Assembly (NCBI GenBank): GCA_963719225.1
Contig: CAVRAY010000001.1
Coordinates: forward strand, 3,616,001 to 3,680,000
Length of the DNA: 64,000 nt
Reading direction: 5' to 3'
From: Thermoanaerobaculia bacterium
GTDB lineage: Bacteria; Acidobacteriota; Thermoanaerobaculia; UBA5066
Below the pieces are notes generated by a model. It was not told where the DNA came from. It saw only the letters and a program-made list of their open reading frames with translations, and made no database searches. Position numbers and translations under genes: made by a program. Shown piece after piece: positions 28,952-49,340 of this stretch. The stretch's first letter is position 1; each line of letters starts with the position of its first letter.

Positions 28952-29028
28952 GGGGCTGTAGCTCAGTTTGGGAGAGCGCCTGAATCGCACTCAGGAGGTC
29001 GTCAGTTCGATCCTGATCAGCTCCACCA
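28952..29028 (+). tRNA. tRNA-Ala(CGC), integration target (attL)
   Basis: GGGGCTG/CAGCTCC acceptor stem with G3:U70; anticodon arm CCTGA-ATCGCAC-TCAGG; TTCGA T-loop; encoded CCA. Confidence 0.97.
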
Positions 29029-29051
29029 CTTTACGTAGCTTCCGAGAGCTC

Positions 29052-29074
29052 CGGTACAGCAAACGGTAACGGGT
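29052..29074 (+). promoter_or_regulatory. Putative integrase arm-type site (left arm; also at 47109-47131)
   Basis: CGGTACAGCAAACGGTAACGGGT matches the motifs at 31138 and 46946. Confidence 0.65.
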
Positions 29075-29117
29075 CGCGTGCTTGCGGTTTGGACCGGTTT
29101 CCGCTGAACTGAGAGCC

Positions 29118-29345
29118 ATGAAAAGCACGAAAACGAAGGCCGAGCCGCGTACGACGCGTGGCTCGCGTGACCTGAAGACCGCGCTCAAGAGAGCGGCCGC
29201 CGCGCTCGAGAAGGCGGCCATGGCCGCGCCCCGGACCCGCGGCTCTCGCGACCTGAAGGTAGAGATCGAGCGCGCGAAGAAGGCCGTCAAGAAGGCCACG
29301 GCGATCGCGCGGACGACACGCGGCTCTCGCGACCTGAAGAGCTGA
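29118..29345 (+). CDS. 75 aa basic protein with three RT(T)RGSRDLK repeats (copy 1)
   Basis: RGSRDLK codons differ only synonymously between repeats (CGT GGC TCG CGT vs CGC GGC TCT CGC). The one SNP seen between copies is silent (ATC/ATT). Confidence 0.75.
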   Translation: MKSTKTKAEPRTTRGSRDLKTALKRAAAALEKAAMAAPRTRGSRDLKVEIERAKKAVKKATAIARTTRGSRDLKS

Positions 29346-29376
29346 GCCGACTCCCCCTCTCTCATGGCCCGCTGGT

Positions 29377-30604
29377 CACGGCGCGTGCGAGGTGCAAGCG
29401 TGCGTGAGCGCACCCTCGCGCACGCGCCGTGCCCGCTAGCGACTCGACAGGAGGCTTCGCCGACGCCGAGGACACGCCCGAAGAGCACGGCCGGAGACAA
29501 CGCCCCCGGCGGCTCCGGCGAGAGGGGCTGGTGGCGCCGGCCGCGGCGGCAGCGCGCGTGCCGGGCCCCTCTTCCCCGGCCCTTCTCCCGGCACGCGCGC
29601 TGCAAACGCCGCTTGCCGATAAACGCGTTTATCGGCTCCGGTGCTTTTCATTTCCCGGCCGCGCGTGCGCGGCCGGGGGCACCCCTCTCGCCTCCGGGCG
29701 TCGCTTCGCTCGGCCGTTTACATAACGTGGCGCTATGTAAACCCGCCGGGGGCATTAAGGCGCGCGCGAATAGCGCGAGCTGCTTGAAGGCCTGTCATTG
29801 CGCGTGCTTTCTTCGCGCGCGTGCGTTTGCGGTCCTCGACGGGGCTGCGGTCCTCAACCCACGCGCGCGGCACGCTCGTGCCAGGCCGGGAGAGCGCGCG
29901 GGGCACGAAGGCACCGCGCGCGGCCTCCGGCCGCGCGCCGGAGGCGCGCAGCGCGCGAAATCTCTGGTGCTCCGGGGCGCGGCGCGAACCGTGCCGCGCG
30001 CAGGATCGAGGACGCGCAGGGACGAGAACCGCAGATGCCGCGCGCGAAGCGACGCACGGAGCGTGACGCGCCTACAGCGCCCGCGCCGAAGGCGCGCGCG
30101 AAAATTCTTCGCGCCGCTTCTCGAAGCCACGGATCTCGAGGAGGCCCCGGCGCCAAGCCCCCGCGCGCGCGAGTTGCTGCGCGCTACGGCGCGCAGCCTC
30201 AGCACATAGCGCTCGCGTTATGTGAAGGGCGCGAAGCGCCCCGGAGGCGTGCGGGGTGCCCCCGCGAAACGAAGTGAAGCGGGAAATGAAAGTGCCGGGG
30301 ACGGTAATAGGCCATTACCGGCCAGCGGCCGCGCGCGCAGCGCGTGGATGCAGCGCGCGTGACGGGCAGGGGAACGTGGGGCCCCGCCCGGCGCGCGCGC
30401 CGCAGAGCGCCCGGCGCCAACGCCCCGCACGCCGGAGCTCGCGCGCGCGGGGCGGATGGTGCGCCGGGTACGCCGAGAGGAAAGCCGATCAGCGCGGAGC
30501 AGTCGAGAGCCGGGAGCGCGGCGCGCCGCTTGCGCGAGAGCGCGACGACCGAGCACGTGTACTCGCGCGCGTAGGTGGTCGCGCGCGAGCCGCAGCAAGC
30601 GGCG
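29377..30604. repeat. Non-coding nested inverted-repeat/structured region of element A (copy 2 at 47434-48661)
   Basis: Diverged inverted pair 29512-29742 / 30203-30438; inner stem 29811-29874 / 29990-30049; flanking hairpins 29377-29431 and 30524-30604. Confidence 0.85.
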
Positions 30605-30658
30605 TGACGTCGCGGGCCGTCAGCGAGGGAAGTGCACTCCAAGCCGAGGCATCACGAA

Positions 30659-31048
30659 TCAGGCGCCGCGACTCTTCGCCCGGCGCTCGGCCAGCGCATC
30701 GATGATCTTGAAGACGGCCTTCTGGTCGTGCGGAGGCAGCTCGTCGAGTCGCTTGAGATGTTTCTGCCGCTGCACGCTCGTCGCGGGCGCCGCTCCCCCG
30801 CTGCGCTCCGGCGCCTTCTTGCGGCCGAGAAGAATGTCGGTCGAAACGTCGAGCGCGTCGGCGATCGCGACGAGGAGCTCGGGTGGCGGGGAAACTCCGC
30901 GCACCTCGTAATAGGTGATCGTCTGCTGCGGCACGCCAATCTTCTTGGCGAGCTCGGCCTGCGTCAGACCCTTCGCGATCCGGAAGCGCCGAATCCGGTC
31001 CCCGAGCGTCTCAGTATTGCCTGATTTCTTCTTCCGTTTCCGCGCCAT
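30659..31048 (-). CDS. XRE-family HTH repressor (copy 1)
   Basis: LGDRIRRFRIAKGLTQAELAKKIGVPQQTITYYE..P..LVAIADALDVSTDILLG. Confidence 0.92.
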   Translation of the reverse strand: MARKRKKKSGNTETLGDRIRRFRIAKGLTQAELAKKIGVPQQTITYYEVRGVSPPPELLVAIADALDVSTDILLGRKKAPERSGGAAPATSVQRQKHLKRLDELPPHDQKAVFKIIDALAERRAKSRGA

Positions 31049-31095
31049 TACCGCCGAGTTTAGGAGTGCTTCGGCAACACAAAGGCTAGCCGGGT

Positions 31096-31123
31096 TTGCC
31101 AGATTACATAAGACTTGTGTAAT
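31096..31123 (+). promoter_or_regulatory. Rightward promoter/operator of element A (copy 2 at 49153-49180)
   Basis: TTGCCA-16 nt-TGTAAT containing the palindrome ATTACA-N9-TGTAAT, divergent from the XRE gene. Confidence 0.65.
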
Positions 31124-31137
31124 CACGGAGGCATCAT

Positions 31138-31239
31138 CGGTACAGCAGGCGGTCAGGGGTATTTGCCCTAGGAAACGTGCTCACCCACTCGTAAGGCCTC
31201 GCTTTTTGGGGGAAAATGCTCGTGTCAGCCTTTATCGCA
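31138..31239 (+). promoter_or_regulatory. Right att arm of element A ending in the crossover core
   Basis: CGGTACAGCAGGCGGTCAGGGGT starts 96 bp before the ATCGCA core of CCTTT-ATCGCA. Sequence after the core (GACAGT) only partly resembles the tRNA (CTCAGG). Confidence 0.7.
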
Positions 31240-31311
31240 GACAGTCGCGCGCTGTCGCCCGGACCGCCACCGCGGGCTGCGACGCTTCCCTCCGCCTTAG
31301 AATCCTAGTGA

Positions 31312-32430
31312 ATGTCCGAACAAGACAACGCATTGATGCGAATCGCCGTTAGCGAGGCGTCGAAGTGTGTGCCTGAGAATGGTGGCGCCCGTCCGCGCGT
31401 CGGCGTAGTCGTGGCAAAAGATGGCGAACTCCTCTGTTCAGCACATCGCGGCGAATTGAAACCTGGCGAACACGCAGAATTCACCGCCCTCGAAGGGAAG
31501 CTCGCAACGACCCCGGTAGCGGGGGCCACCCTCTATACGACCCTCGAGCCGTGCACATCTCGCAACCATCCGAAGGTGCCGTGTGCAGAGCGCCTTATCC
31601 AGAGAAAGATCGCGCGCGTGCTCATCGGGATGCTTGATCCAAATCCAAACATATCGGGCCGCGGTCTTCGTCGTCTGCGCGAAGCTAATATCGTTACTGA
31701 ACTCTTCCCATCAAACCTAATGGCGGAACTCGAGGAGCTCAATCGAGAGTTCATCGCAACCTTCCCCTCCGCTGGGGCGGCTCCTCGCGCGGCCGAGCTA
31801 GCCCCTCCGACTCCGTCCGGCCCGTCTCCGGTCGACTACTCGCCTATCGTCCTTACCGGCAGGGGCCAACAAGCGTCGGCCCTTTTTTCCCTAAAAGCAG
31901 GCCTCCACGTCTTCAAGCTATCGCATGACGGGATGGGCCATTTTGGTGTCTGGCTACTCGACACCCGGGGTAACAAGATCGACCTACTAGCGAATCAGAA
32001 CGGTAGCTTCGCAGGATCTAAGGCTGTAGCGATCTCATCACCAGACCAGTTCCTCGTGAACGTGGCGGCCGATGGCGCCTGGCTGGTGTCAGCCGTCGCG
32101 TCCGGGCCGTCCGCGCCCATCCCGGCATCTGAACTGCCACGCTTTGTTCCCGGCGCGGTGCAGTCGTCGCGGGGGGTGTTCGTGTACCACCTCACGAATC
32201 GGGGCGCCGAGATCTACGACCTGGCCCTCCAGCCGGCGCCATCCTTGTCCCTCTCTCTCTCTCACGATTCAATTCTCGCGAGCGGCCAGACTTTTCAGAT
32301 CACAGTCTCGGGACAGCAGCCATTGGCCCCAGTAACCGTCTCGCTTCGATACGTGACCTCTTCTGGGCGAGAGGCACTCCAACTCATCCACCTCCCGCAG
32401 GACCATAAGCGCGCCAACATGGTGCCCTAG
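31312..32430 (+). CDS. RibD-like Zn deaminase domain fused to beta-sandwich domains
   Basis: HAEFTALE, LYTTLEPC..PC and GMLDPNP motifs. No reductase domain; a Pro linker is followed by two beta-rich domains. Confidence 0.8.
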   Translation: MSEQDNALMRIAVSEASKCVPENGGARPRVGVVVAKDGELLCSAHRGELKPGEHAEFTALEGKLATTPVAGATLYTTLEPCTSRNHPKVPCAERLIQRKIARVLIGMLDPNPNISGRGLRRLREANIVTELFPSNLMAELEELNREFIATFPSAGAAPRAAELAPPTPSGPSPVDYSPIVLTGRGQQASALFSLKAGLHVFKLSHDGMGHFGVWLLDTRGNKIDLLANQNGSFAGSKAVAISSPDQFLVNVAADGAWLVSAVASGPSAPIPASELPRFVPGAVQSSRGVFVYHLTNRGAEIYDLALQPAPSLSLSLSHDSILASGQTFQITVSGQQPLAPVTVSLRYVTSSGREALQLIHLPQDHKRANMVP

Positions 32431-32589
32431 CACCTTGCGATTGCGTGGGCCAGCGGGAACGCGACAAGCGCTGGCTGTTCCGGGCGGCAAGTACCTTCGA
32501 ATGGCCTCGGTCCATCCAGACCCCGGTTCCGCGTACCGCCGCTGATTCGCACGCCTAGAGTGAGGTTCTGACACGAGAGGTGCATCCGG

Positions 32590-32612
32590 GGGCGGTGCTC
32601 GCTACACCGCCC
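32590..32612. terminator. GC-rich hairpin between convergent genes
   Basis: GGGCGGTG-N7-CACCGCCC; no clear U tract. Confidence 0.4.
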
Positions 32613-32636
32613 TTCGGGAATGAAAGCTGACCAACG

Positions 32637-33950
32637 TCAGCGTTCCGCCCGGGGCAAAGTGAGCGTAGCCCGGCACCCGCACATCCCCTCGCGGTTTCTG
32701 AGTGAGAGCGCACCACCATGAGCCTCCGCGATCTGGCGGGAGAGAACCAGGCCAATGCCAGACCCTTCCGCTTTTGTCGTGAAGAACGGGACGAACAGGT
32801 TCGCGCTTTCAAGCAAACCCGGGCCATCGTCATCCACCTTGATATCAACCTCGTCAGGCCTCAGCGACCAGCCGACGCGGACGCCACCACCAGTCTCGAG
32901 GGCGGCGTCTGCGGCGTTCCGCAGAAGGTTGATCAGGGCCTGCTCAATCTGGTCTACGTCGGCGAACACGTCCACGGGCGTGCTTTCCTCGACGTCGACC
33001 ATTAGCCGGGTTTCAAAGCCAGCAGCGCGTCGAACCACGGCGTCCACCGCCATGGGTGCTAAGCGTGGCTTCGGCAGCCGCGCGAGGCGCCCGTAGGCGT
33101 CCATGAAGCGGCCAAGCGATTCCACACGCGACGCAATGACGGCGAGCCCCCGGCCTACGTCTTCGTCCCAGTCCGCGGGCCGCGGGTGGCGCTTCATCGA
33201 GCGTTCCAGACTTCCCGCGATGGAGCGGATCGGCGTAAGCGAGTTGTTCAGCTCATGTCCCATGACGCGAATCAGACGCTGCCAGGCTTCGTGTTCCTCT
33301 TGATGGAGCGCCCGGGAGAGATCCGCGAGGACGACGAGAAGATGAACGCGTCCCTCCTGTCGGAATCGGCCTCTCTTCACACCCCAGCGCCCGCTTCCCC
33401 CTGGAAGTGCGAGGTCAAGCGTCGGCCGGTCGTCGCTCAGTGCATCGGAGAGCCCGATGTCGGAAGCGGTGCGACCGAGGAGCTGTTCCGCTGGCCGCCC
33501 GAGCAGTCGTTCGCCTGCTCTATTCACCAGACGAAGGGCGGGGCCTTCGTCGAACGCGAAGATTGCCACGTCCATTTCCGTCATCACCGTGCGCAGGAGG
33601 GCGTTCGCTTCCAGAGTTCCAAGTCTCTGTTCGCGGTAGGACTCCGCGAGTGCATTCACTTCGCCCGTGACTTCGGCGAGCGCGTCCCGACCGTCGACCC
33701 GCCCGCGAATCGAAGAATCACCCTCGCGGAGCGCTGAAAGGAGGTTCGCGAGAGTTCGGAGTGAATGCCGTACACGACCACGAACGGCCGCCGCAAACCC
33801 CAACCAGGAAGCCACCAGGGCGAGCGTGACTGCCACCTTGACGCCGACCCCTTGAGCCGTTGCGAAGAGAAGCGCCAGCGAGACGACGGTGGCGGGAGCC
33901 CCCGCGAGGAGCGCGAATGTAAGGACGTCCCTCTCATGCCCTCCTCTCAT
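32637..33950 (-). CDS. Membrane sensor histidine kinase (PAS, NtrY-like)
   Basis: Two TM helices; GHELNNSLTPI, NLLRNA, DDGPG, FFTTK..GSGIGL. Confidence 0.92.
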   Translation of the reverse strand: MRGGHERDVLTFALLAGAPATVVSLALLFATAQGVGVKVAVTLALVASWLGFAAAVRGRVRHSLRTLANLLSALREGDSSIRGRVDGRDALAEVTGEVNALAESYREQRLGTLEANALLRTVMTEMDVAIFAFDEGPALRLVNRAGERLLGRPAEQLLGRTASDIGLSDALSDDRPTLDLALPGGSGRWGVKRGRFRQEGRVHLLVVLADLSRALHQEEHEAWQRLIRVMGHELNNSLTPIRSIAGSLERSMKRHPRPADWDEDVGRGLAVIASRVESLGRFMDAYGRLARLPKPRLAPMAVDAVVRRAAGFETRLMVDVEESTPVDVFADVDQIEQALINLLRNAADAALETGGGVRVGWSLRPDEVDIKVDDDGPGLLESANLFVPFFTTKAEGSGIGLVLSRQIAEAHGGALSLRNREGMCGCRATLTLPRAER

Positions 33951-35350
33951 CGTGGGGGCAGCGGCAGGGGGGGTCGCGCGCCTCCCACCGCGGAAATGCC
34001 GTACCTCTCCAGCCTCCGGTAAAGCGCCCCGCGAGAGAGCCCCAGTGCATTCGCCGCTAGGCTGACGTTGTTCCCGAAGCGTGCGAGGGCCTTGCGGATG
34101 AGGTGGGCCTCGACGTCCTCAAGGCTCATGTCGTCGAGGGTCGGGCCCGGCCCGTACGCCGTCCTGAGCCCGAGATCGGCGACCCTGATCTTCTCCCCCG
34201 CCGCCATGAGAACCCCGCGCTCCACGGAATGATCCAGCTCGCGGACGTTCCCCGGCCACCGATAAGCCAACATGGCCTGAACCGCTTCAGGCTCGAAACC
34301 GGTCACCGCCTTTCGAGTCTTGCTGGCGTGACGTGAGAGAAAGAGGTGTGCGAGGAGGGGGATGTCCTCGTACCTGTCGCGAAGGGGCGGGATGGGAATC
34401 TCGACTGTATTGAGGCGGAAAAAAAGATCCTGCCGAAGTCGACCGGACGCGAGGTCCGCTCGGACGTCGGAATTGGTAGCCGAGAAGATCCGTACCGAGA
34501 CGCGCCGGGTTCGCGACGACCCGACCCGTTCAAATTCGCCGGTCTCGACGACCCGGAGGAGCTTCGGCTGGAGTGAGAGCGGGAGCTCGGCGATTTCATC
34601 GAGGAAGAGCGTGCCGCCGTCCGCAAGCTCAAACCGACCAACCCGATCCGACTTCGCGTCGGTAAACGCACCTCGGACGTGCCCGAAGAGCTCGCTCTCG
34701 AAGACGCCCTCGGGGAGGCCGCCCACGTTCACCGTCACGAGCGGCTGGTTGTTGGCGCGCGATGCGGCGTGAAGTGCGCGCGCGACGGCTCCCTTTCCGC
34801 TCCCGTTTTCGCCGGTGATGAGAACGTTCGCGTCGGAGGGGCCCACGCGAGCGATCAATTCAAGGGCCGGTCGCATCGCCTTGGACTCCGCGAGCAGGTC
34901 GGGGCGCCCTCCCTCGCGCAGCAGGCGGTTTTCTAACGCGAGCCTTTCGCCACGCCGAATCGTCCGCGAGAGTTCGGCCTGCGTCTTCAGAATCTGAAGC
35001 AGTCGCTCGTTTTCCCAAGGCTTCTGGACGAAGTCACGCGCCCCAAGCCGCATCGCTTCCACGGCCAGCCCCACGCTGCCCCAAGCGGTCATCACGACCA
35101 CCGGGAGCGTCGGGTCGACGGCGTGAATACTGGCGAGAAGACCCAGTCCTTCGCGCCCAGACGTCGTGTCTCGCGTGTAGTTCAAATCCGCGAGGAGAAC
35201 GTCGAAGTCGCGCGCTTCGAGCGCCGCGACGACACCGCCCGGCGAGCTGACGGTTTCGATTTCGAAGTCTTCTCCCTTGAGGAGCAGTCGTAGAGCTTCG
35301 ACGACGTCGTGCTGGTCGTCAGCGATCAAAAGGCGAGCGGGAACGTTCAT
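33947..35350 (-). CDS. Sigma54-dependent response regulator (NtrC family)
   Basis: REC domain, GENGSGK, ESELFGH..GAFTDA, WPGNVREL, C-terminal Fis-type HTH. Confidence 0.95.
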   Translation of the reverse strand: MNVPARLLIADDQHDVVEALRLLLKGEDFEIETVSSPGGVVAALEARDFDVLLADLNYTRDTTSGREGLGLLASIHAVDPTLPVVVMTAWGSVGLAVEAMRLGARDFVQKPWENERLLQILKTQAELSRTIRRGERLALENRLLREGGRPDLLAESKAMRPALELIARVGPSDANVLITGENGSGKGAVARALHAASRANNQPLVTVNVGGLPEGVFESELFGHVRGAFTDAKSDRVGRFELADGGTLFLDEIAELPLSLQPKLLRVVETGEFERVGSSRTRRVSVRIFSATNSDVRADLASGRLRQDLFFRLNTVEIPIPPLRDRYEDIPLLAHLFLSRHASKTRKAVTGFEPEAVQAMLAYRWPGNVRELDHSVERGVLMAAGEKIRVADLGLRTAYGPGPTLDDMSLEDVEAHLIRKALARFGNNVSLAANALGLSRGALYRRLERYGISAVGGARPPLPLPPR

Positions 35351-35378
35351 CGCTTTACAAAGGTTACTCGCGTCGCGT

Positions 35379-37787
35379 TCATTCGCCCCGGAGCGCGATT
35401 GCAGGGTCCACGCGCGTGGCCGGAAGGGCCGGAAGGACGCATGCAGCCCCGGCCATCACAACCAGTAGCGCGACCGTCGCAACGAATACCGAGCCATCTA
35501 GCGCGTTCACGCCGAAGAGAAAACTCGACAGGAAGCGGGTAAGGGCTGCGGCGCCCAAGACACCCACGACGGCACCAAGGAGAACGGGAATCATCCCCTG
35601 CCAGGCGATCAGGCGCACCACATCTCGTGGGAGTGCACCTAGTGCGAGCCGGATGCCGATCTCGTGTCGTCGTTCACCTACGCCGTGCGCGACGACGCCA
35701 TAGATTCCGATGCAGGCGAGAAGGATCGCCAGTGCCGCAAACCCAGTCAGGAGGCCTGTCCGGAGTTTCGGCTGGCTCAGGGAAAGGTCCCTCAGCTGTT
35801 GCAGGGTCATCACCCCGTGTATGGGCTGAGTTGGATCGACTTCAGCTGCCGCGCGTCTCACCGCAGATGTGAGCGACGAGGGATCGACGCTGCTCTTCAG
35901 GACGATCGTCATGAGCGACGCGGTCCGAGCGAAGAGCTTGGAGGCGTTCTGGCCATACGGGACATAGACGGTGGGGCGCGCTTCCTGATCGAGCCCTTGG
36001 GACCTCACATCGCCCACGACCCCCACGATCTCGCGCCAATCACCCGGGTCGTTCAGGCTAATTCGCTGACCCACCGGACTTCGGTCCGGGAAGTACCGAC
36101 GCGCGAGCGCCTGGTTCACGACGGCGACGTCCGGCGCCCCCGGACCATCGAGCGCAGTGAAAGCGCGCCCCTCCTGGACCGGGATCCCCAACACTCCGAA
36201 GTAGTCGGCGCTCACGACGCCATACTGGGCGACCCCTTCGGACCCCGTGTCGCGCGAACGCCCCGCCACGAGAAGGCCGGTGGAACCCATTCCGAGACTG
36301 AGAGGTATTGAGCTGCCCGCGGCCGCGAGCTTCACGCCGGGTACCACGGCGGTGCGCTCCAGAAGCCGGCGGAAGAAATCTGCTTGCCGCGCCCGGTCGG
36401 GATAGCGCGACTGTGGCAGCGCGACCCGATACGTCAGGACGTTAGATGGCTCGAATCCGAGAGCCACGCCCGAAAGGCGTGCGAGGCTCTTGAGAAAGAG
36501 GCCTGCCCCCACGACGAGGAGAATGGCGAGCGCCGTCTCGAAGCCAACCAGAAGGGCGCGCGCCGTCCGCCTTTCCCTGCTTGCTGTCGCTCGCCCGCCC
36601 TCTTTGAGCCCCTCTGCGGGCAAGTCCCGTGCGGCGTGGAAAGCGGGAAAGAGCCCGAACAGTACGGTGACGGCAATGGCAACGACGAGTGTGAAGAGAA
36701 ACACTGGGAGCTGAATGCCGACTTCGGGCATCCGCGGGAGATTTGGGTCGGCCGCCCTAAAGGCGGCCAGAGACCAAGTAGCCAGAAGAAGACCGAGTGC
36801 ACTGCCGGCGGCCGCGAGCAACGCGCTTTCCGTGAGGAGCTGGCGCACCAGTCGAAGCGGGCCCGCACCTAGCGCCGCGCGGATGGCGAATTCCCTCTGT
36901 CTCGCGGCCCCGCGCGCTAGAAGGAGGTGCGCGACGTTTGCACATGCGATCAGGAGAACGATGGCGACCGCTGCTCCCAAGGCGAGAAAGGCCGGACGAA
37001 ACTCACCGACGGAAGCCTCGCGCCAAGGCACGAGGACAGCGGCGAGTGGTGGGTCCTGATGGAAGTCCCGGGACGTCCCCACCATGAGAAGGTCCATCTC
37101 GGCCTGAGCGGCCTTGATGGAGATTCCTGGAGCGAGGCGGCCGTATGCACGGAGGTACGTCGTGTTTCGCGCCGAGCGATCGCTGGGCCCGAGGGCGAGC
37201 GGCAGGAGAAGGTCCGCACCAACAAAGTGAAATGAAGCGGGCATGACCGCCGCTACGACGTGCGGTTCGCCGTTAAGCAAGATCGTCTTCCCCAACAACG
37301 TCGTCTGCCCGCCGAATCGCCGCTGCCAGAGGCCGTCAGTGAGTACCACCGTCTTCGGCGCGCCGGGTCGGTCTTCATCGGGCCCGAAGAACTGACCAGA
37401 AGAAGGCGGAATCCCTAGAAGTGGGAAGAGTGAAGCCGACACCTTCGCGCCGACCACTCGCTCCGGCTCGCCCTCGCCGTTCAGCGTGACGCTGATGGTG
37501 CTGACGCCGGTGACGTTCGTCAGCGAGGTAAGACGATCCTTCCAGTCGAGAACGTCTGCGGGAGCCACGCCTGACCGTCCTGCCTTTGCATCAGAGCGGA
37601 AGATCTGGACGATTCTCTCGGAGTCGGCATAAGGGAGAGGCTTCAGGAGGACGCCGTTGACGACGCTGAACAGGGCCGCATTGGCGCCAATGCCGAGCGC
37701 AAGCGTCACGACTGATGCGACGGTAAACCCCGGAGCTCTGCTCAGGGAACGGAGAGCGTAGCGAAGGTCCTGAAGAAGCGCATTCAT
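35379..37787 (-). CDS. MacB/FtsX-type duplicated ABC permease (ADOP-like)
   Basis: LQDLRYALR..PGFT..TLALGIGAN, LLIACANVA, REFAIRAALGA, EIGIRLALGA, ALRGE end. Confidence 0.92.
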   Translation of the reverse strand: MNALLQDLRYALRSLSRAPGFTVASVVTLALGIGANAALFSVVNGVLLKPLPYADSERIVQIFRSDAKAGRSGVAPADVLDWKDRLTSLTNVTGVSTISVTLNGEGEPERVVGAKVSASLFPLLGIPPSSGQFFGPDEDRPGAPKTVVLTDGLWQRRFGGQTTLLGKTILLNGEPHVVAAVMPASFHFVGADLLLPLALGPSDRSARNTTYLRAYGRLAPGISIKAAQAEMDLLMVGTSRDFHQDPPLAAVLVPWREASVGEFRPAFLALGAAVAIVLLIACANVAHLLLARGAARQREFAIRAALGAGPLRLVRQLLTESALLAAAGSALGLLLATWSLAAFRAADPNLPRMPEVGIQLPVFLFTLVVAIAVTVLFGLFPAFHAARDLPAEGLKEGGRATASRERRTARALLVGFETALAILLVVGAGLFLKSLARLSGVALGFEPSNVLTYRVALPQSRYPDRARQADFFRRLLERTAVVPGVKLAAAGSSIPLSLGMGSTGLLVAGRSRDTGSEGVAQYGVVSADYFGVLGIPVQEGRAFTALDGPGAPDVAVVNQALARRYFPDRSPVGQRISLNDPGDWREIVGVVGDVRSQGLDQEARPTVYVPYGQNASKLFARTASLMTIVLKSSVDPSSLTSAVRRAAAEVDPTQPIHGVMTLQQLRDLSLSQPKLRTGLLTGFAALAILLACIGIYGVVAHGVGERRHEIGIRLALGALPRDVVRLIAWQGMIPVLLGAVVGVLGAAALTRFLSSFLFGVNALDGSVFVATVALLVVMAGAACVLPALPATRVDPAIALRGE

Positions 37788-37854
37788 CGTTCGCACCGGA
37801 TCGGGGCCGCGCCATCGGCGAAACTCGCGGTACGAATACGCTGAAATCGGAGGT

Positions 37855-39844: not shown

Positions 39845-39858
39845 CAGTTCCAGCAATA

Positions 39859-39873: not shown

Positions 39874-39936
39874 CGACGAAGCAGCGGCTAAGAACCTGTG
39901 GCTGGACGCGTTGACGCGTTCTTCATTCCTTCCCAC

Positions 39937-39972: not shown

Positions 39973-40268
39973 CAACTACTACGGCTCTCTGCGAGGCATG
40001 CAGCACTGTCTTTCGAAGGTCCTCCGGCACGGCGGGTAGCTCCAGCCATCGGAGGGCCTCGAGGCCAGGCGCGACGGCTTCGCCCGTTCGGCCACGAGGT
40101 CTCGGTCCGGGCGCCAGCCCCATTCGACGTTGCACGCTTAGGTAGACGTACCAGCCTTCCCTTTCAGTCACAACCTAGGACACATCGACCACCTCTGCTC
40201 TTAGCTGCTTCGCGTCGGAGACCCCGCGAGGAGTCCCGTCGGGCCGTAACCTGAATTGGATCGCCTTC

Positions 40269-41075: not shown

Positions 41076-41106
41076 CTTCAGGCGGTTCGAAGCGAGAACT
41101 TTCGCC

Positions 41107-42183: not shown

Positions 42184-42234
42184 CGATTACTCTTCAAGAA
42201 ACCTCGTTAGTGGGGCGCCTACCGATGCGAGGCA

Positions 42235-42873
42235 GTGAGGGGCGAAGTGGATTCTAAGGAACGCGCGTTGATCACGGGTCTGCTCGGCCGGGTCCAGGCC
42301 CTGGAGTTCGATGAGCACCACGCTCTGAGCCTACTGATTCTGCTCCGGCGCCACGCGGCGTCGAAGGCACCGCTGGCCGCGGAGCTCGGCGACTTCGTCG
42401 CACACCGCGAGCGAGACCGTGGCCTTCTGCTTCGTTTCTTGAAGCAGGTCCAGGGAGCGTTACTACCCGGCGGACAGGCACCGACTCACTACGACACGCC
42501 GGTGAGTGTTCCCGTTCTTCACGATCAACTGAACGCGCTCTTCGCGGAGCTCTCGATGTCTCCGATCCGCTTCGAGCATGCAGAGTGCCTGGCCCTGGTC
42601 GTCGCGGCGCTCCTCGACCGCGTGGAATTCCCGGTTCACGGGGCGCGGAGATCGAGGTTGCTCTTCGGATTTAATGCTCAGTTTGCTGGCCTGTTCGGCG
42701 AGGTCCCCCTTCTTTCAGCCATCGTCGCATTCCCCGTCATGGCGGTCCGCAACCGTTTCTTCGAATCCCCGTTCGATGACCCCGAAACCTACTGGTTCCC
42801 TGACCGCCGCTTCACCGTTTCAGCGGCATGCCACGACGGAACCGTCGGCTTCGCACAGAGCCCAGCGCTATGA
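42235..42873 (+). CDS. Hypothetical protein (possible divergent HEPN-like)
   Basis: 212 aa, helical, ELGDFVAHRERDRG; ATGA-coupled to the next gene. Confidence 0.55.
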   Translation: MRGEVDSKERALITGLLGRVQALEFDEHHALSLLILLRRHAASKAPLAAELGDFVAHRERDRGLLLRFLKQVQGALLPGGQAPTHYDTPVSVPVLHDQLNALFAELSMSPIRFEHAECLALVVAALLDRVEFPVHGARRSRLLFGFNAQFAGLFGEVPLLSAIVAFPVMAVRNRFFESPFDDPETYWFPDRRFTVSAACHDGTVGFAQSPAL

Positions 42874-44525
42874 GCTGGATCAGCGAGGGGGATCGTGACT
42901 GCCTCTATCTCTGGGAACTACCCGGACTCGCTTGGAGCGGGGCCTTCTTACGCCTCGCGGAGGAGTTTGGAGTAAAGCCGCCGGAGAGTCCGGCATTTCA
43001 CGACATCGTTCGGATGGGATGGCTCATTCCACGGCGTCGCGTGAGGCTCCCGGAATCAGTCGTTCGGGCGATCCACGGTGAGCTCAGCCTGGATAACGTG
43101 CCCGAAGCCGACCACTGGGCTCTTCACCTTTGGAACCGCTGCCGTAGCTTCTTCCCGGAGCATGTCAATGATGTCGCGGTCGCCTTCACGGGTAGCTGGT
43201 ACCGCCCCCCACTAGAGCTTGACGGTGACGACCTTGCCCGATCCGTTCAGGAAAACACCATCCCGGCCGACACGGAAGAAACGAGCCGGCCTTTGGTTCG
43301 GCTGAAACGGGGAGATGAGGTTCCTGCGTGGCTCGACTTCTTCGCATTCTGGCAGGTTTATGAGCTCGTGGAGATCCTCGGCTCTAGCCGCCTCTTTGCG
43401 CCCGTCCGTAACACCCCCAACGCGCGTGCCGATCTGGAACAGGTGGTGGCGCGTTTCGACTGGTTTAAGGGGGTCTCCGATGGTCGTATCAAGGCTGTCA
43501 CCGAAACGTGGCAGCGACGAGCGCCGGTGTTCGAGTGGGTCGGCAGGTATCGCACCCTTCTCGGCATTTGGCTCGGGAGAAAAGGGTCGCGCGACGACAT
43601 GACCGCCGCCGCAAACGCGCTCGCATCAGACCTTGGGCTGAGCGCCGATGCAATGAGGGTAGGGATCAGAGACACGCTGCTCATTCTTTGGAACGACATC
43701 GACTGGAGAAACGGCTGGGAGGACTTGCCGGATGCGGCCTTGGAACGGCTGAGGCAAGACATCTACTGGGCAGTCCAGTTTCTCGGGCAAGTGACGGGTG
43801 ATGCCATTGACCTCGACGACGCGTTCTGGAGCCCACCAGACCGAATGGCCAGGGAGTGGGCGGCGCTCCCCGACGTCCTGTCATTCGAATGGCACGAAGC
43901 GAAGGAGAGCTTTACCCGAAACGCTCTCCACTACCTCGAGGCATTCAACAAGGCCTCCTCGCCCGGGGGCTCATTCGATGAAGCGGCCCTCGCCAAGCAA
44001 GCGGAACGAATGAACGCCTCGGTGCCCTTCCGTCGCTTCATGCTCGCGTTTTTTCGTTTGCATCAACATGTTGGCGGGGCGATCAACAGGTCGACACGGA
44101 TTCAGCTCCAGGAAGAGACGCCGATCGATTTTCTCCTGCTCTGCGCCCTGTTCGCGGAGAAGGTCGTTGGCGAGGCGTATCTCGCGAAGAATCGGGGGGC
44201 GGCCCTCCCGAGGTTCAACAAGCTCGTCCACTGGCTCTCGGGTGAGGTGGAGACTGCGAAGGGTCTGAATGGGCTCCGAACGAAGGTTGCGAGTCGGCTG
44301 AAATCCGGCGAGACGGAGCTCTACGACCTTCCTCAAACGCGTCGAATCCCCTTCAATGTCCCGACGGCGAGCTCTGAAGAAGCGATCGTTGAAGAGGCCT
44401 TCGTGAACTTCGCCAAGATCCGAAACTACGCGGCGCACCATGATGTCCTCGATTTCGAGCTTATTCACACCCCGGCCGCGGTGCACGTCTTGGAATCGCT
44501 GCTGCTCGTGGTTCTGTTGACCTGA
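42870..44525 (+). CDS. Hypothetical protein with C-terminal HEPN-like RxxxxH motif
   Basis: About 551 aa; FAKIRNYAAHH in a helical C-terminal region. Confidence 0.6.
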   Translation: MSWISEGDRDCLYLWELPGLAWSGAFLRLAEEFGVKPPESPAFHDIVRMGWLIPRRRVRLPESVVRAIHGELSLDNVPEADHWALHLWNRCRSFFPEHVNDVAVAFTGSWYRPPLELDGDDLARSVQENTIPADTEETSRPLVRLKRGDEVPAWLDFFAFWQVYELVEILGSSRLFAPVRNTPNARADLEQVVARFDWFKGVSDGRIKAVTETWQRRAPVFEWVGRYRTLLGIWLGRKGSRDDMTAAANALASDLGLSADAMRVGIRDTLLILWNDIDWRNGWEDLPDAALERLRQDIYWAVQFLGQVTGDAIDLDDAFWSPPDRMAREWAALPDVLSFEWHEAKESFTRNALHYLEAFNKASSPGGSFDEAALAKQAERMNASVPFRRFMLAFFRLHQHVGGAINRSTRIQLQEETPIDFLLLCALFAEKVVGEAYLAKNRGAALPRFNKLVHWLSGEVETAKGLNGLRTKVASRLKSGETELYDLPQTRRIPFNVPTASSEEAIVEEAFVNFAKIRNYAAHHDVLDFELIHTPAAVHVLESLLLVVLLT

Positions 44526-44549
44526 TGGTTAGGGGAAGCAGCGCCGCCC

Positions 44550-45011
44550 TCACACGAGCGGCTTTACTTCTCCGCTGGGTCTGATGATCTTCACGAACGG
44601 CGGCGTCTGCTTGCGCACCGCTCGCACGATCCGAGCGAGACCCTTCGCGAACGCCTCGATCTGCGTTGCCGACGACATGGTGGCGCTCGAAAAGTAGAAG
44701 GCGCGCACCTTCGCGCGCTTAAGGGCATCTAGCTCATCTGGCTTCCGGCTCTGCCGGCGATCCGACGAGATGAGAACCCATCCGCTGCGCCCCACGTCAG
44801 GCAGCCACTCGAGGTCGGGCGCGCCGCGAGCGAATTCCGTGCGGCTTCTCTTAACGTCGAGCCCGAGCCCTTGGAGTGCAGACGCAAGATCGTCCCCGTC
44901 GACGTTCGCGTCGAGGAAGAAGGGCGGCAGCCCCGAGGTATCAGGCCGCTTTCCGCTTCGCCCGCTGCTCGAACGCGACCGCTTGCTCGACTTGATCTTT
45001 CGTGAGGTCAA
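44550..45011 (-). CDS. PIN-domain toxin (VapC45/PIN_10-like); start uncertain
   Basis: FFLDANV..APDLEWL..VG..GWVLISSDRR..E..AL..AKVRAF. Confidence 0.8.
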   Translation of the reverse strand: MTSRKIKSSKRSRSSSGRSGKRPDTSGLPPFFLDANVDGDDLASALQGLGLDVKRSRTEFARGAPDLEWLPDVGRSGWVLISSDRRQSRKPDELDALKRAKVRAFYFSSATMSSATQIEAFAKGLARIVRAVRKQTPPFVKIIRPSGEVKPLV

Positions 45012-45666
45012 GGTCTTTTGAAACAGCTTCGACGCTGTCGCCCGCCGCAACTCTCCCGCTGATGATTTCCGTACGCACCCGCGTCCCGGTCACAACGGGG
45101 TGACCGAAGGCGATTCGCGGGTCCACGGCAATCGGCCTTTCCGTGTCCGAGATCACCACGGGGAAAAAGCGAACGGGCCCGGTCGCGTCACGCTCGATTC
45201 GTTTGAGGTGTGACTCGATGAGCTTCTCAATCAGGATCTGCTCGGGTCGGTTCAGGTCGATCAGCTTGCCGAACTTCCGGACGAAGAGATCAACGCCGTC
45301 CGTCAGAAAGTCGACGAATGCGAGGGGATGAGGCTGGGAGTGGTAGCCCGGCAGCACCTCAAGGGCCTTGCGGATCTGCTGCATCGTGAGATCGTGCTCC
45401 CGCCGAAGAGCCCGCAGGAACTGTGCTTCCATCAGGTTGATGAAGGACAGCATGGCGTTAGCAGGCTCGGGAAGCTCGAGGAGCGCGTCGGCGCGCTTCT
45501 GACCAGCCTGGACAGGGTACTTTCGCCCGAGAGCCCAGGTTCGTAGCGTCGCGGGGTTGAGGTCGAGGCAGAGCGCAGCCTCACGAATCCCATAGAAGGG
45601 AATGTCGCGCGGATCTCGACCTCCGTAGATGTCGTCTCTGGCGGGCGTAACTAGCGGCAGCCCCAT
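44941..45666 (-). CDS. DUF433/VapB45-like antitoxin
   Basis: FYGIREAA..TLRTW HTH, LSFINLMEA, VDPRIAFGHPVVTGTRVRTE. Confidence 0.88.
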   Translation of the reverse strand: MGLPLVTPARDDIYGGRDPRDIPFYGIREAALCLDLNPATLRTWALGRKYPVQAGQKRADALLELPEPANAMLSFINLMEAQFLRALRREHDLTMQQIRKALEVLPGYHSQPHPLAFVDFLTDGVDLFVRKFGKLIDLNRPEQILIEKLIESHLKRIERDATGPVRFFPVVISDTERPIAVDPRIAFGHPVVTGTRVRTEIISGRVAAGDSVEAVSKDLDLTKDQVEQAVAFEQRAKRKAA

Positions 45667-45770
45667 GGGCGGATTATGACCCACTGACTTGAGGCCGTCT
45701 GCCACGACCGGGATGAGCCCAGGGCTGGCCCCAGCGTCGCTTCTCCCGCTTCCGGGGGCTACCGCCGGGC

Positions 45771-45798
45771 TTGACATATTACAGAAAATATCTGTAAT
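45771..45798 (+). promoter_or_regulatory. Integrase promoter with overlapping operator
   Basis: TTGACA-16 nt-TGTAAT containing the palindrome ATTACAGA-AAATA-TCTGTAAT. Confidence 0.7.
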
Positions 45799-45897
45799 TT
45801 TGTTCCGCACGATGTGGAGTTCTACTGTTCCCCGCCGGGCTCAATTGCCGCTTGACACGATTCATGCAGAAGCGCCCCAGCGGGCAGGAAACGCACC

Positions 45898-46956
45898 GTG
45901 GCCTGGTTGATGAGGCGAAACGACCGCGGGGGCGGGTGGTACGTCTGCTTCCATACGGCGGGCGGGAAGGAAGTCCGACGGGCGGCCGGAAAGTCACGCC
46001 GAACAGCCGAGCGGATCAAGGCGAAGATCGAGACCCAGCTACGCGAAAGCAAGTTCTTCAACCGCGACCAGACATCGACGTGGACGCTTGAGCAGCTATC
46101 GGCTCTCTACCTCGAGCGTCTGGCCCGGCTTCGGCCGCGGTCGGCGCGGTGGCGGCGAGAGATGTACAGGCAGGTGCTCCGAGCCCTCGGCAGTGAGCTC
46201 CTCATCGAGGAAATCGAACTATCCACGCTTGACGCTTACGTGGAGAGACGGCGCGGGGAAGGAAAAGCGCCTTCGACGATCAATAGGGAACTGTCGGTCC
46301 TGCGCCATTCTCTGCATCTCGCGGCGCGCTGGAAGACGGAAACGAATCTCTCCCGCTACAGGCTCGCGGACTGGGAGCCGCTGCGTGAATCTCAGGACGC
46401 GCGCCAGGCCGTGTTCCTGACGGCCGAGCAGGTTGCGCGCGTGCTTGGCGCGGCCCACGGACGCGCGGCGGGAGGTGGACTGAACGAACGCCAGGGCGAG
46501 GCCGTGATCCGGCTCGCACTCGAGACCGGTGCGCGGCTCGGGGAAGTCCTAGGTCTCTCCTGGGCTGATCTGGATTCCAAAGGCGTGACCCGGATTCGAA
46601 CCGAGAAGAATGGTCCGGACCGGTGGGTCCAGCTCAATGAGTCGACCGTGCAGCTCCTCGAGTCGTTCCGCGATCAGCGAAACGGGAGCGGCCTCATCTT
46701 CCCGAGCGCGCTGACGGGCGCACAGCGTGTAGATATCCGCCGCTTCTGGCACGCGGTTCGGAAGATCGCGAACGTCGAGCACATCCGCTTTCACGATCTC
46801 CGGCACACCGCGGCCTCCGAGATGCTTCGTCGCGGCTTCCTGCTGCGTGAGGTGCAGTACGTCCTGGGCCATTCTTCGGCCCGGATGACGGAGCGATATG
46901 CTCACTTCGCTCCGACGTTCAAGGCGCCGAAAGCTCTGTCCTGGGCGGTACCGTAA
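45898..46956 (+). CDS. int: Tyrosine integrase with N-terminal arm-binding-like domain
   Basis: TGARLGE, TEKNG, FHDLRHT, LGHSS..MTERYAH catalytic set; ends 84 bp before the att repeat. Confidence 0.95.
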   Translation: MAWLMRRNDRGGGWYVCFHTAGGKEVRRAAGKSRRTAERIKAKIETQLRESKFFNRDQTSTWTLEQLSALYLERLARLRPRSARWRREMYRQVLRALGSELLIEEIELSTLDAYVERRRGEGKAPSTINRELSVLRHSLHLAARWKTETNLSRYRLADWEPLRESQDARQAVFLTAEQVARVLGAAHGRAAGGGLNERQGEAVIRLALETGARLGEVLGLSWADLDSKGVTRIRTEKNGPDRWVQLNESTVQLLESFRDQRNGSGLIFPSALTGAQRVDIRRFWHAVRKIANVEHIRFHDLRHTAASEMLRRGFLLREVQYVLGHSSARMTERYAHFAPTFKAPKALSWAVP

Positions 46957-47090
46957 ACGGTCAGGGGTTCCTGTCTCGGCTGCGCGCTGAGACGCTCGAA
47001 AGACCCCGCGTTTTCGGGCCAAACACCCCCGTTGTCCTTTATCGCACTCAGGAGGTCGTCAGTTCGATCCTGATCAGCTCCACCACTTTA
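46946..47090 (+). repeat. Right arm of B plus tRNA-Ala 3' fragment (internal att junction)
   Basis: CGGTACCGTAAACGGTCAGGGGT starts 95 bp before the ATCGCAC core, which begins the 50 bp tRNA repeat. Confidence 0.85.
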
Positions 47091-47174
47091 CGTAGCTTCC
47101 GAGAGCTCCGGTACAGCAAACGGTAACGGGTCGCGTGCTTGCGGTTTGGACCGGTTTCCGCTGAACTGAGAGCC

Positions 47175-47402
47175 ATGAAAAGCACGAAAACGAAGGCCGA
47201 GCCGCGTACGACGCGTGGCTCGCGTGACCTGAAGACCGCGCTCAAGAGAGCGGCCGCCGCGCTCGAGAAGGCGGCCATGGCCGCGCCCCGGACCCGCGGC
47301 TCTCGCGACCTGAAGGTAGAGATCGAGCGCGCGAAGAAGGCCGTCAAGAAGGCCACGGCGATTGCGCGGACGACACGCGGCTCTCGCGACCTGAAGAGCT
47401 GA
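47175..47402 (+). CDS. 75 aa RGSRDLK-repeat basic protein (copy 2)
   Basis: Same protein sequence as 29118-29345. Confidence 0.75.
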   Translation: MKSTKTKAEPRTTRGSRDLKTALKRAAAALEKAAMAAPRTRGSRDLKVEIERAKKAVKKATAIARTTRGSRDLKS

Positions 47403-48715
47403 GCCGACTCCCCCTCTCTCATGGCCCGCTGGTCACGGCGCGTGCGAGGTGCAAGCGTGCGTGAGCGCACCCTCGCGCACGCGCCGTGCCCGCTAGCGAC
47501 TCGACAGGAGGCTTCGCCGACGCCGAGGACAGGCCCGAAGAGCACGGCCGGAGACAACGCCCCCGGCGGCTCCGGCGAGAGGGGCTGGTGGCGCCGGCCG
47601 CGGCGGCAGCGCGCGTGCCGGGCCCCTCTTCCCCGGCCCTTCTCCCGACACGCGCGCTGCAAACGCCGCTTGCCGATAAACGCGTTTATCGGCTCCGGTG
47701 CTTTTCATTTCCCGGCCGCGCGTGCGCGGCCGGGGGCACCCCTCTCGCCTCCGGGCGTCGCTTCGCTCGGCCGTTTACATAACGTGGCGCTATGTAAACC
47801 CGCCGGGGGCATTAAGGCGCGCGCGAATAGCGCGAGCTGCTTGAAGGCCTGTCATTGCGCGTGCTTTCTTCGCGCGCGTGCGTTTGCGGTCCTCGACGGG
47901 GCTGCGGTCCTCAACCCACGCGCGCGGCACGCTCGTGCCAGGCCGGGAGAGCGCGCGGGGCACGAAGGCACCGCGCGCGGCCTCCGGCCGCGCGCCGGAG
48001 GCGCGCAGCGCGCGAAATCTCTGGTGCTCCGGGGCGCGGCGCGAACCGTGCCGCGCGCAGGATCGAGGACGCGCAGGGACGAGAACCGCAGATGCCGCGC
48101 GCGAAGCGACGCACGGAGCGTGACGCGCCTACAGCGCCCGCGCCGAAGGCGCGCGCGAAAATTCTTCGCGCCGCTTCTCGAAGCCACGGATCTCGAGGAG
48201 GCCCCGGCGCCAAGCCCCCGCGCGCGCGAGTTGCTGCGCGCTACGGCGCGCAGCCTCAGCACATAGCGCTCGCGTTATGTGAAGGGCGCGAAGCGCCCCG
48301 GAGGCGTGCGGGGTGCCCCCGCGAAACGAAGTGAAGCGGGAAATGAAAGTGCCGGGGACGGTAATAGGCCATTACCGGCCAGCGGCCGCGCGCGCAGCGC
48401 GTGGATGCAGCGCGCGTGACGGGCAGGGGAACGTGGGGCCCCGCCCGGCGCGCGCGCCGCAGAGCGCCCGGCGCCAACGCCCCGCACGCCGGAGCTCGCG
48501 CGCGCGGGGCGGATGGTGCGCCGGGTACGCCGAGAGGAAAGCCGATCAGCGCGGAGCAGTCGAGAGCCGGGAGCGCGGCGCGCCGCTTGCGCGAGAGCGC
48601 GACGACCGAGCACGTGTACTCGCGCGCGTAGGTGGTCGCGCGCGAGCCGCAGCAAGCGGCGTGACGTCGCGGGCCGTCAGCGAGGGAAGTGCACTCCAAG
48701 CCGAGGCATCACGAA

Positions 48716-49105
48716 TCAGGCGCCGCGACTCTTCGCCCGGCGCTCGGCCAGCGCATCGATGATCTTGAAGACGGCCTTCTGGTCGTGCGGAGGCAGCTCG
48801 TTGAGTCGCTTGAGATGTTTCTGCCGCTGCACGCTCGTCGCGGGCGCCGCTCCCCCGCTGCGCTCCGGCGCCTTCTTGCGGCCGAGAAGAATGTCGGTCG
48901 AAACGTCGAGCGCGTCGGCGATCGCGACGAGGAGCTCGGGTGGCGGGGAAACTCCGCGCACCTCGTAATAGGTGATCGTCTGCTGCGGCACGCCAATCTT
49001 CTTGGCGAGCTCGGCCTGCGTCAGACCCTTCGCGATCCGGAAGCGCCGAATCCGGTCCCCGAGCGTCTCAGTATTGCCTGATTTCTTCTTCCGTTTCCGC
49101 GCCAT
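48716..49105 (-). CDS. XRE-family HTH repressor (copy 2)
   Basis: Same as copy 1 except D-to-N in RLNELP. Confidence 0.92.
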   Translation of the reverse strand: MARKRKKKSGNTETLGDRIRRFRIAKGLTQAELAKKIGVPQQTITYYEVRGVSPPPELLVAIADALDVSTDILLGRKKAPERSGGAAPATSVQRQKHLKRLNELPPHDQKAVFKIIDALAERRAKSRGA

Positions 49106-49290
49106 TACCGCCGAGTTTAGGAGTGCTTCGGCAACACAAAGGCTAGCCGGGTTTGCCAGATTACATAAGACTTGTGTAATCACGGAGGCATCATCGGTAC
49201 AGCAGGCGGTCAGGGGTATTTGCCCTAGGAAACGTGCTCACCCACTCGTAAGGCCTCGCTTTTTGGGGGAAAATGCTCGTGTCAGCCTTT

Positions 49291-49340
49291 ATCGCACTCA
49301 GGAGGTCGTCAGTTCGATCCTGATCAGCTCCACCACTTTA
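49291..49340 (+). repeat. attR: displaced tRNA-Ala 3' end
   Basis: 50 bp identical to 28984-29033, followed by unrelated host-like sequence. Confidence 0.92.

Follow-up and report, generated by a model that had tools for sequence, protein, structure and literature searches.

A small integrase-less island and an integrase-bearing block in tandem at tRNA-Ala, likely forming one composite island

Results

Array at the tRNA-Ala gene

At tRNA-Ala(CGC) in the stretch of DNA analysed here (the window, 64,000 bp), the tRNA gene is followed by an integrase-less element A, an integrase-bearing block B and a second copy of A (A'). A belongs to a family of small islands at tRNA-Ala that lack an integrase, and A and B probably make up one composite island with complementary parts. 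The features are listed below; those without a strand carry no sign.

28952-29028, + strand: tRNA-Ala(CGC), the target gene (ARAGORN, Rfam)
28984-28990, + strand: attL 7-bp overlap ATCGCAC in the anticodon loop, between inverted CCTGA/TCAGG
28984-31233, + strand: mini-element A, 2,250 bp, without integrase
29054-29069, + strand: left (P') arm-type motif of A
29118-29345, + strand: orf1, a 75-aa basic protein with three TRGSRDL repeats
29350-30650: hairpin module, about 1.3 kb
30659-31048, - strand: XRE/RstR-like repressor, 129 aa, helix PQQTITYYE
31103-31123: putative operator ATTACA-N9-TGTAAT, upstream of the XRE gene of A
31140-31155, + strand: right (P) arm-type motif of A
31234-31245, + strand: A/B joint, pseudo-core ATCGCAG/ACAGT, without tRNA fragment or arm
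31234-47040: block B, 15,807 bp
45778-45798: another site of this putative operator, immediately preceded by a TTGACA hexamer and lying between the genes for DUF433 and the integrase
45898-46956, + strand: tyrosine integrase, 352 aa, intact frame
46948-46963, + strand: right (P) arm-type motif of B, which overlaps the stop codon of the integrase gene
47041-49290, + strand: second copy A', 2,250 bp
49291-49360, + strand: third tRNA 3' fragment, then a truncated left end

The order tRNA-A-B-A' and the four junctions at the core ATCGCA (28984, 31234, 47041, and 49291), both described in the initial annotation, were confirmed by the core positions and by the comparison of A with A'. The two copies differ at 4 positions over 2,250 bp, all of them substitutions and none an indel; one is silent, and another is a D-to-N change that is also present in a relative. 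Their identity on the right stops 6 bases inside the core, and the overlap ATCGCAC appears to be the crossover region. A carries the 3' half of tRNA-Ala from 28984 on. The tRNA 3' fragment occurs in three copies, none of them following the junction at 31234 (0 expected, 100 shuffles), and the arm motif occurs in five, at 29054, 31140, 46948, 47111, and 49197 (0.04 expected), with none following 31234 or 49291. The tRNA 3' end is restored by A and by A+B, and not by B alone. At the left junction of A', the arm of B, the core, the tRNA fragment, and the arm of A follow one another, which is the build of a complete attP. Core and arm motifs flank A' and the solo minis of relatives on both sides.

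The fourth junction had been read as an attR. Its core is in place, but host DNA probably does not follow directly as at a clean attR: the sequence runs on for about 24 bases into the left end of another element and ends before an arm motif. This truncated end probably belongs to a third, decayed island reaching about 55 kb, an extent that is based on GC content only (0.62-0.65 at 49-55 kb versus 0.66-0.71 beyond). The T-arm variant was rejected as a marker of host versus element tRNA ends, as each of the two is also present where no element begins.

Mini-element A and its solo relatives

The motif counts and the ORF scan agree with the earlier description of A as having the tRNA 3' fragment, both arms, and an XRE gene: none of its ORFs codes for a recombinase, an integrase, or transfer functions. 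In tblastn searches, the XRE protein matched A and A' only. The orf1 product is retained in several minis and was assigned to no family; a role as excisionase was unsupported (no usable Atlas match), and no excisionase was identified.

The claim that A has no recombinase of its own and is found alone in relatives was upheld in the same genus. Of 28 same-genus genomes, 7 had complete integrase-less minis at tRNA-Ala with the core at both ends, 1,315-2,298 bp long and either solo or in tandem (tandem at L025 and L031), and no integrase or XerC match was found at any of 16 mini loci scanned. A search for the P-arm plus core pattern that covered the family's genomes found it in 9 of the 28 same-genus genomes, with 0 for the reversed control.

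Hairpin module

The hairpin module consists of two imperfect inverted halves of about 450 bp and a middle part of about 400 bp. Each half holds two palindromes (29616-29635 and 29720-29738 in the first), whose look may be dif/Xer-like. The module is more conserved than the genes of A. Its halves are 94-98% identical between genomes in which the adjacent host gene has 64-68% identity, which fits horizontal spread, this one host gene being a thin yardstick of host divergence. Searches with the module returned no RNA family (in Rfam the tRNA alone was matched) and no plasmid, and three viral matches to the first palindrome shared just those 20 bases. The module is likely a cis site, either an origin or a resolution site.

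The same hairpin module is found in modules with a DnaG-type primase, an XerC (NCBIfam NF002331/PRK01287), and Rhs, which also share the divergent layout of A and an XRE related to its own (about 36% identity). A differs from them in having no primase, XerC, or Rhs. One such primase-XerC-Rhs module is located in this genome at C1:1.4255-1.4323 Mb, its primase and XerC lying at C1:1.428-1.432 Mb. No description of these modules was found in the literature searched, including the available parts of PMC4428218 and PMC10991766. A primase match was obtained in 5 of the 28 genus genomes; an obligate primase helper for the minis was rejected, since only 2 of the 7 genomes that have complete minis gave such a match. 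Neither the hairpin module nor its connection with the primase-XerC-Rhs modules is mentioned in the initial annotation.

Block B and the A/B joint

The cargo of B includes a deaminase, a histidine kinase with a sigma-54 regulator, ADOP permease/ABC/HlyD proteins, and a SIR2-like protein, in addition to three ORFs without a family, a PIN and HTH-DUF433 pair, and the integrase, whose catalytic residues are complete (R213/H299/R302/H325/Y334). Phage integrases align to residues 4-339 at about 30%, and no solved structure matches the N-terminus, where an arm-binding domain would lie. The integrases P0001-P0005 are 84-96% identical to that of B. No XRE gene was found among the scanned ORFs of B, and no relaxase or T4SS family among its ORFs, three of which have no family. 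B was thus correctly described as having an integrase and a right arm, with no XRE gene and with a left junction that carries neither tRNA fragment nor arm. A helper phage was rejected, as the viral contigs contained no close integrase (best segments at most 38% identical); the junction pattern occurred in 0 viral contigs. A defence system in B was also rejected, with weak SIR2 matches only, in 1 of 7 proteins. The deaminase was found in 0 of 62 family genomes, none of 30 metagenomic deaminase loci had features of A, and no second genome with the whole of A+B was found.

The pseudo-core at the A/B joint matches 6 of the 7 overlap bases. The joint is spanned by contigs of two other studies (X1 record 8 and X5 record 24), which have 37 and 45 differing letters in about 360 (~88-90% identity); the X1 contig is 4,185 bases long, the X5 contig has a depth of 2.7, and the letters at the joint itself were not seen. 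A related element, L072, lies in a non-tRNA site and ends in ATGGAAA/ACAGG, a joint of like kind. Loss of the left end of B at a secondary core had been offered as an alternative history. It is most likely the origin of the joint and not a rival history.

Palindrome shared by repressor and integrase

The palindrome ATTACA-N9-TGTAAT has 3 sites in the 4.75-Mb genome, located before both A repressors and before the integrase of B. This count holds with 1 mismatch, and there are none at other spacings of 0-40. The 62 family genomes contain four further sites, each upstream of an A-type XRE, while at another A-type XRE locus (L023) the palindrome has diverged. The half-sites are conserved and the 9-bp spacer differs. 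In the XRE recognition helix, A-type proteins have PQQTITYYE and unsplit forms SQRM/VI.YYE, and the upstream site differs likewise. This distribution fits the earlier suggestion that A may lend the repressor. No promoter was called at either palindrome in a sigma-70 scan. The palindrome before the integrase could also be an inherited relic, or it could be bound by the neighbouring HTH-DUF433 protein.

Unsplit relatives

Four of the six closest integrase loci have their own XRE gene divergent from the integrase, so a split common to the whole family finds no support, and the A/B arrangement appears to be a derived state. In addition, both of the closest loci with an assembled left end have their own tRNA fragment and arm. 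Homologues equipped in this way had been named in the initial annotation as part of what would speak against its model. As relatives of the B integrase have their own XRE and left ends, the helper of A need not be B. The unsplit XRE/integrase forms have the same layout as A, the minimal form being 3,130 bp, and A seems to have been derived by loss from an autonomous relative. Integrase relatives were found in only 2 of the 28 same-genus genomes, one of them frameshifted and the other a fragment. A programmed frameshift was rejected, because two 1-base deletions in relatives sit at different places.

Discussion

In the composite island that we consider probable, the left arm and the tRNA 3' end would come from A, as probably would the repressor, and the integrase and the right arm from B. 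Excision by the B integrase would then release A+B (18,057 bp), A' alone (2,250 bp), or the whole of A+B+A' (20,307 bp). A would have arisen by integrase loss from an ancestor with the order tRNA fragment, arm, orf1, hairpin module, XRE/integrase, and arm. Recombination between an A-type attP and a secondary site within a larger island that carried an integrase may have removed the left end of that island, whose XRE would earlier have been replaced by the DUF433/PIN pair. Recent integrase-mediated excision and tandem re-entry could have generated A' from A, or the reverse, and the hairpin module may have been inherited from primase-XerC modules as a cis site.

The array is a variant of CIME-type tandem accretion, in which stripped-down islands are known to hitch-hike. 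CIMEs and accretion of the ICESt1/ICESt3 type are defined in the accessible part of PMC5704250, and the accessible part of PMC5812530 reports an internal attL' in ICESt1. As far as these parts extend, A resembles a CIME in keeping attL and attR without integration or transfer genes, in forming a tandem array with an integrase-bearing element next to a tRNA end, and in the composite units predicted to excise. However, relaxase and conjugation genes are missing from the annotated ORFs of B, and its own left end is lost; with no relaxase or T4SS family in its ORFs, the partner is not an ICE or IME. The mini also appears to represent a conserved family, more numerous than its helpers, and has a foreign hairpin module; it keeps a repressor, with a putative operator before the integrase of its partner. 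Similarly, tRNA/tmRNA islands with a tyrosine integrase such as I55 (PMC12595487, accessible part) have the integrase beside att, no transfer machinery, and defence-like cargo (here the SIR2-like protein, the deaminase, and the toxin-antitoxin pair), whereas the functions here are split over two fused pieces. The iOriT islands, in the available portion of bioRxiv 10.64898/2026.01.13.699239, are also minimal integrated hitch-hikers that retain a cis site and are often more numerous than their helpers; the cis module of A is instead common to primase-XerC modules and not to a relaxase system, and no oriT was identified. Unlike PICI-type phage satellites, A and B have no primase, replication, or capsid-redirecting genes of their own.

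Tripartite ICEs are defined by several integrases and separate target sites, whereas the array has one integrase, one tRNA site, adjacent pieces, and no conjugation. The likeness to these ICEs, which are mentioned in the accessible part of PMC5812530, is that a mobile unit is joined from separate chromosomal pieces by site-specific recombination.

Integrase-less tRNA islands are usually taken as decaying leftovers. A provides a 2.25-kb test case, with defined arms, a pseudo-core, and a candidate pair of repressor and operator that connects the mini with a helper integrase. If the hairpin is an origin on which primase-XerC-Rhs modules act, it would represent an amplification route for islands without replication or transfer genes, and also a handle on this common module.

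A may instead be no decay product but a satellite that is maintained as an adapter and lives as a parasite on two unrelated elements, a tentative reading that we consider somewhat unlikely as a whole. A would enter tRNA-Ala with a borrowed integrase, and it would be copied or resolved by way of its hairpin module, on which a primase-XerC-Rhs element would act in trans. It would also land in secondary sites and capture integrase-bearing cargo, to which it would give a left end and a repressor, so that A+B would be a stable two-part island continually spawning solo copies of A. The opposite view, that A and B are decayed leftovers of one past secondary-site event with no exchange now and with the palindrome as a relic of common descent, agrees with the mostly broken integrase relatives in the genus, the fragments in other arrays (L030, L073, and L123), the truncated third left end, and the sigma-70 result. 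Even so, it is improbable, since the B integrase is intact with all catalytic residues, both palindrome half-sites are kept despite the differing spacer, the duplication of A is recent and exact at the core junctions, and diverged contigs span the A/B joint.

An identical order with all four junctions would also result if A and A' had already been in tandem and had received B between them, at their attP-like junction, as a separate circle with a right arm and core but no left arm. A would then not co-travel. Tandem minis do occur in relatives. This route is distinctly improbable: the circle without a left arm would itself have to come from an A/B-type joint, the joint with the arm of A is present in two other studies, and the shared palindrome suggests an older link between A and B. 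Finally, a chromosome with one A and a free A+B circle, or two strains, might have been merged into one contig. The B/A' junction is exactly the predicted circle junction, and the genome is listed at 6.21% contamination. Such an artefact is nevertheless very improbable, as the copies of A differ by 4 substitutions without indels, and assembly into 2 contigs implies that the reads exceed 2.25 kb, the length of the repeat. Even an artefact of this kind would still imply an active A+B unit.

Structure of the tRNA-Ala array

The genome under study (G000) is 4.75 Mb in two contigs, and the window lies on contig C1 (3,616,001-3,680,000). The initial annotation described a tRNA-A-B-A' array with four core junctions, and this anatomy was borne out. 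ATCGCA is present at all four junctions, and the tRNA 3' fragment and the arm motif occur in the window in three and five copies, respectively, with no copy of either after the junction at 31234.

28952-29028, tRNA-Ala(CGC)
28984-31233, integrase-less mini-element A, 2,250 bp
31234-47040, block B
47041-49290, second copy A', 2,250 bp, 4 substitutions relative to A

The genes of block B encode a deaminase, an ADOP permease and an ABC/HlyD exporter, a two-component pair, a SIR2-like protein and a PIN/DUF433 pair. Its tyrosine integrase is intact, and the right arm motif overlaps the integrase stop codon. A and B fairly probably form a composite island, in which A gives the tRNA 3' end, the left arm and probably the repressor, and B gives the integrase and the right arm. 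The deaminase (31312-32430) is fused to a C-terminal region without a known match; this fusion, and the SIR2-like gene with three neighbouring family-less ORFs (together 41107-44525), are possible defence cargo.

A 42-bp stretch with 76% identity is common to the regions upstream of the XRE gene of A and the integrase gene of B, and contains the palindrome ATTACA-N9-TGTAAT. Three sites in the window carry the palindrome, against 0 in 100 shuffles; the whole genome has the same three sites only, even allowing one mismatch, and none with other half-site spacings from 0 to 40. The 62 family genomes hold four further sites, all upstream of A-type XREs, which have the helix PQQTITYYE in common; variants are found at L027 (one mismatch) and L023 (diverged further). 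The palindrome of B comes directly after TTGACA, a hexamer that drifted in the A-like solo elements (minis), and a promoter scan made no call at either palindrome location (XRE side or integrase side). Judged from sequence, the XRE of A is a putative binder of the palindrome before the integrase gene of B.

The last junction, given as attR, probably opens a third, decayed island rather than host DNA. Beyond a third, truncated left end, the region 49336-55000 has lower GC over about 5.5 kb and codes for a DUF4386 pair, DinB, an ABC ATPase, GntR, and a Cu/Zn superoxide dismutase. A tRNA fragment that would close the island was not found in 49336-55000.

Relationship to unsplit elements and known systems

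Among the closest six integrase loci on genome contigs, four have an XRE gene divergent from the integrase gene and two are C-terminal fragments, with duplicates counted once (L069 repeats L025; L072 repeats L037). L071, treated as unpublished data, is one of the four XRE-integrase loci and one upstream-site row; genomes G037, G042, and G451 otherwise enter the tallies only. The unsplit element of L072 is inserted at a non-tRNA secondary site, and its integrase gene has a 1-base deletion, either real or a sequencing error.

L072:8015-11145, unsplit element, 3,130 bp: tRNA fragment, arm, palindrome pair, XRE, integrase, arm

Because of this layout and the four XRE-integrase loci, A looks like the unsplit form without its integrase, and B resembles the right part of that form, with the DUF433/PIN pair in the place of XRE. 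The three unsplit XREs that were aligned have the helix SQRM/VI.YYE and an upstream site different from the A-type one.

CIMEs are defined as elements that have lost integration and transfer genes and kept attL and attR, in a source that also describes tandem accretion and secondary sites (PMC5704250); ICESt1 has an internal attL', and tripartite ICEs are noted too (PMC5812530). The iOriT islands (bioRxiv 10.64898/2026.01.13.699239) and the tRNA/tmRNA-anchored island I55 (PMC12595487) were further comparisons. At the sequence level A qualifies as a CIME, but no conjugative partner accompanies it. The literature covered on integrase-less islands and Acidobacteriota tRNA-Ala islands, mostly papers open without subscription, does not describe the mini family. 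New here are the mutual fit, with a mini supplying the left end and probable repressor and a truncated island supplying the integrase, the fact that the mini has spread as a family, and the hairpin module that it has borrowed.

Origin of the A-B joint

Compared with the true sites, ATCGCAC|TCAGG, the A-B joint ATCGCAG|ACAGT agrees at 6 of the 7 overlap bases and in part of the core arm. The L072 element ends at its non-tRNA site as ATGGAAA|ACAGG; therefore, members of this integrase family have inserted at secondary sites shaped like the joint. In the simplest history, an A-type attP would have recombined with a secondary site within a larger island, and normal excision from that new left junction to the right junction of B would then release the 18,057-bp A+B unit. 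A' is likely an integrase-made duplicate, since A and A' differ far less than A and the minis of other species, and since the right end of A' would need a crossover at a 6-base match. A small palindrome, GACAG-N7-CTGTC, lies immediately right of the A-B core (31240-31256).

Logan contigs from two studies cross the joint, one from run X1 (record 8, depth 13.6; 31138-31500 with 37 differing letters) and one from X5 (record 24, depth 2.7; 31146-31500 with 45 differing letters and 6 gaps), so the joint is either old or a hot spot used repeatedly. X5 also contains the ordinary arm-core-tRNA form, and no piece over the joint was among those listed for X3. Counting against the composite A+B unit, the B deaminase was found in none of the 62 family genomes, and none of 30 deaminase loci from metagenomes (63% identity at most) had A features.

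Mini-elements in relatives

Sixty relatives were searched with A, and 20 follow-up stretches were then picked from the best matches. Separate searches had been proposed for solo occurrence of A, and this was found: 7 of 28 same-genus genomes contain complete integrase-less minis with the core on either side, at tRNA-Ala(CGC) or tRNA-Ala(GGC). Three of the seven retain XRE.

L019, complete mini, 2,298 bp
L023, complete mini, 2,146 bp
L022, complete mini, 1,908 bp
L025, complete mini, 1,905 bp
L027, complete mini, 1,851 bp
L029, complete mini, 1,682 bp
L034, complete mini, 1,315 bp

The right arm plus core pattern was present in 9/28 same-genus and 0/34 other family genomes (reversed control, 0), and the integrase in 2/28 same-genus genomes and 5/174 genomes of the order, many of them incomplete. 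The hairpin halves of G008 (L022) and G013 (L021) are 94-98% identical to those of A, whereas the adjoining host gene is 68% and 64% identical, respectively. This contrast is consistent with horizontal spread or with strong selective pressure on the module.

The 75-aa basic protein of orf1 (29118-29345) has three TRGSRDL repeats, whose count differs between minis; it had no family match and is a candidate factor for DNA bending or directionality. The same arrays also contain shorter pieces of the tRNA-Ala 3' end, beginning in the T-arm (L027:5218-5260, L032:18918-18943, L070:6928-6955, L120:5554-5579), which suggests a second integrase family on the same tRNA.

The hairpin module

29350-30650, hairpin module: a middle part between two imperfect inverted halves
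L001:9400-16285 (G000 C1:1.4254-1.4323 Mb), hairpin module-XRE-primase-XerC; others at L078/L079, L139, L143, L145

The three parts of the hairpin module gave single-strand folding z-scores of -6.8, -4.6, and -3.2, and Rfam had no match to it. In an alignment of 17 halves, the first palindrome changes on both sides (A-T in 9, G-C in 7). The second has 7/8 pairs in 12 halves, all with a fixed A-C mismatch, 8/8 in one, and a poor register fit in 4. The aligned rows are related, and this covariation is as compatible with folded DNA as with palindromes bound by protein. The module was present in 30/62 family genomes vs 0/112 of the other two families (E 1e-15), although diverged palindromes are present there at L070 and L072.

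Away from tRNA-Ala, 10 of 22 fetched module loci adjoin XRE or primase-XerC modules, 3 XerC fragments, 6 Rhs pieces, and 3 none of these (the array shared by L078 and L079 counts once; L089 is excluded as a probable mini fragment). The module probably works as an origin or a resolution site, acted on in trans, but only 2/7 genomes with complete minis gave a primase match. The genome under study has one full primase-XerC-type module, at L001. The primase of these modules is CHC2/toprim (about 1,050 aa) and the XerC is PRK01287. Tandem runs of these modules are often found behind Rhs genes, together with orphan Rhs tips and cargo that resembles defence genes, and single hairpin halves follow Rhs tip/immunity pairs at L002, L085, and L086. 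No description of primase-XerC-Rhs modules was found in the literature covered, again mostly open papers. The hairpin-XRE-primase-XerC unit looks like a common mobile module, which may swap toxin tips.

Contig C2 carries two tmRNA genes with near-identical tags (ARAGORN; G000 C2:222382-222743 and C2:609793-610153), which may come from the 6% contamination or an island.
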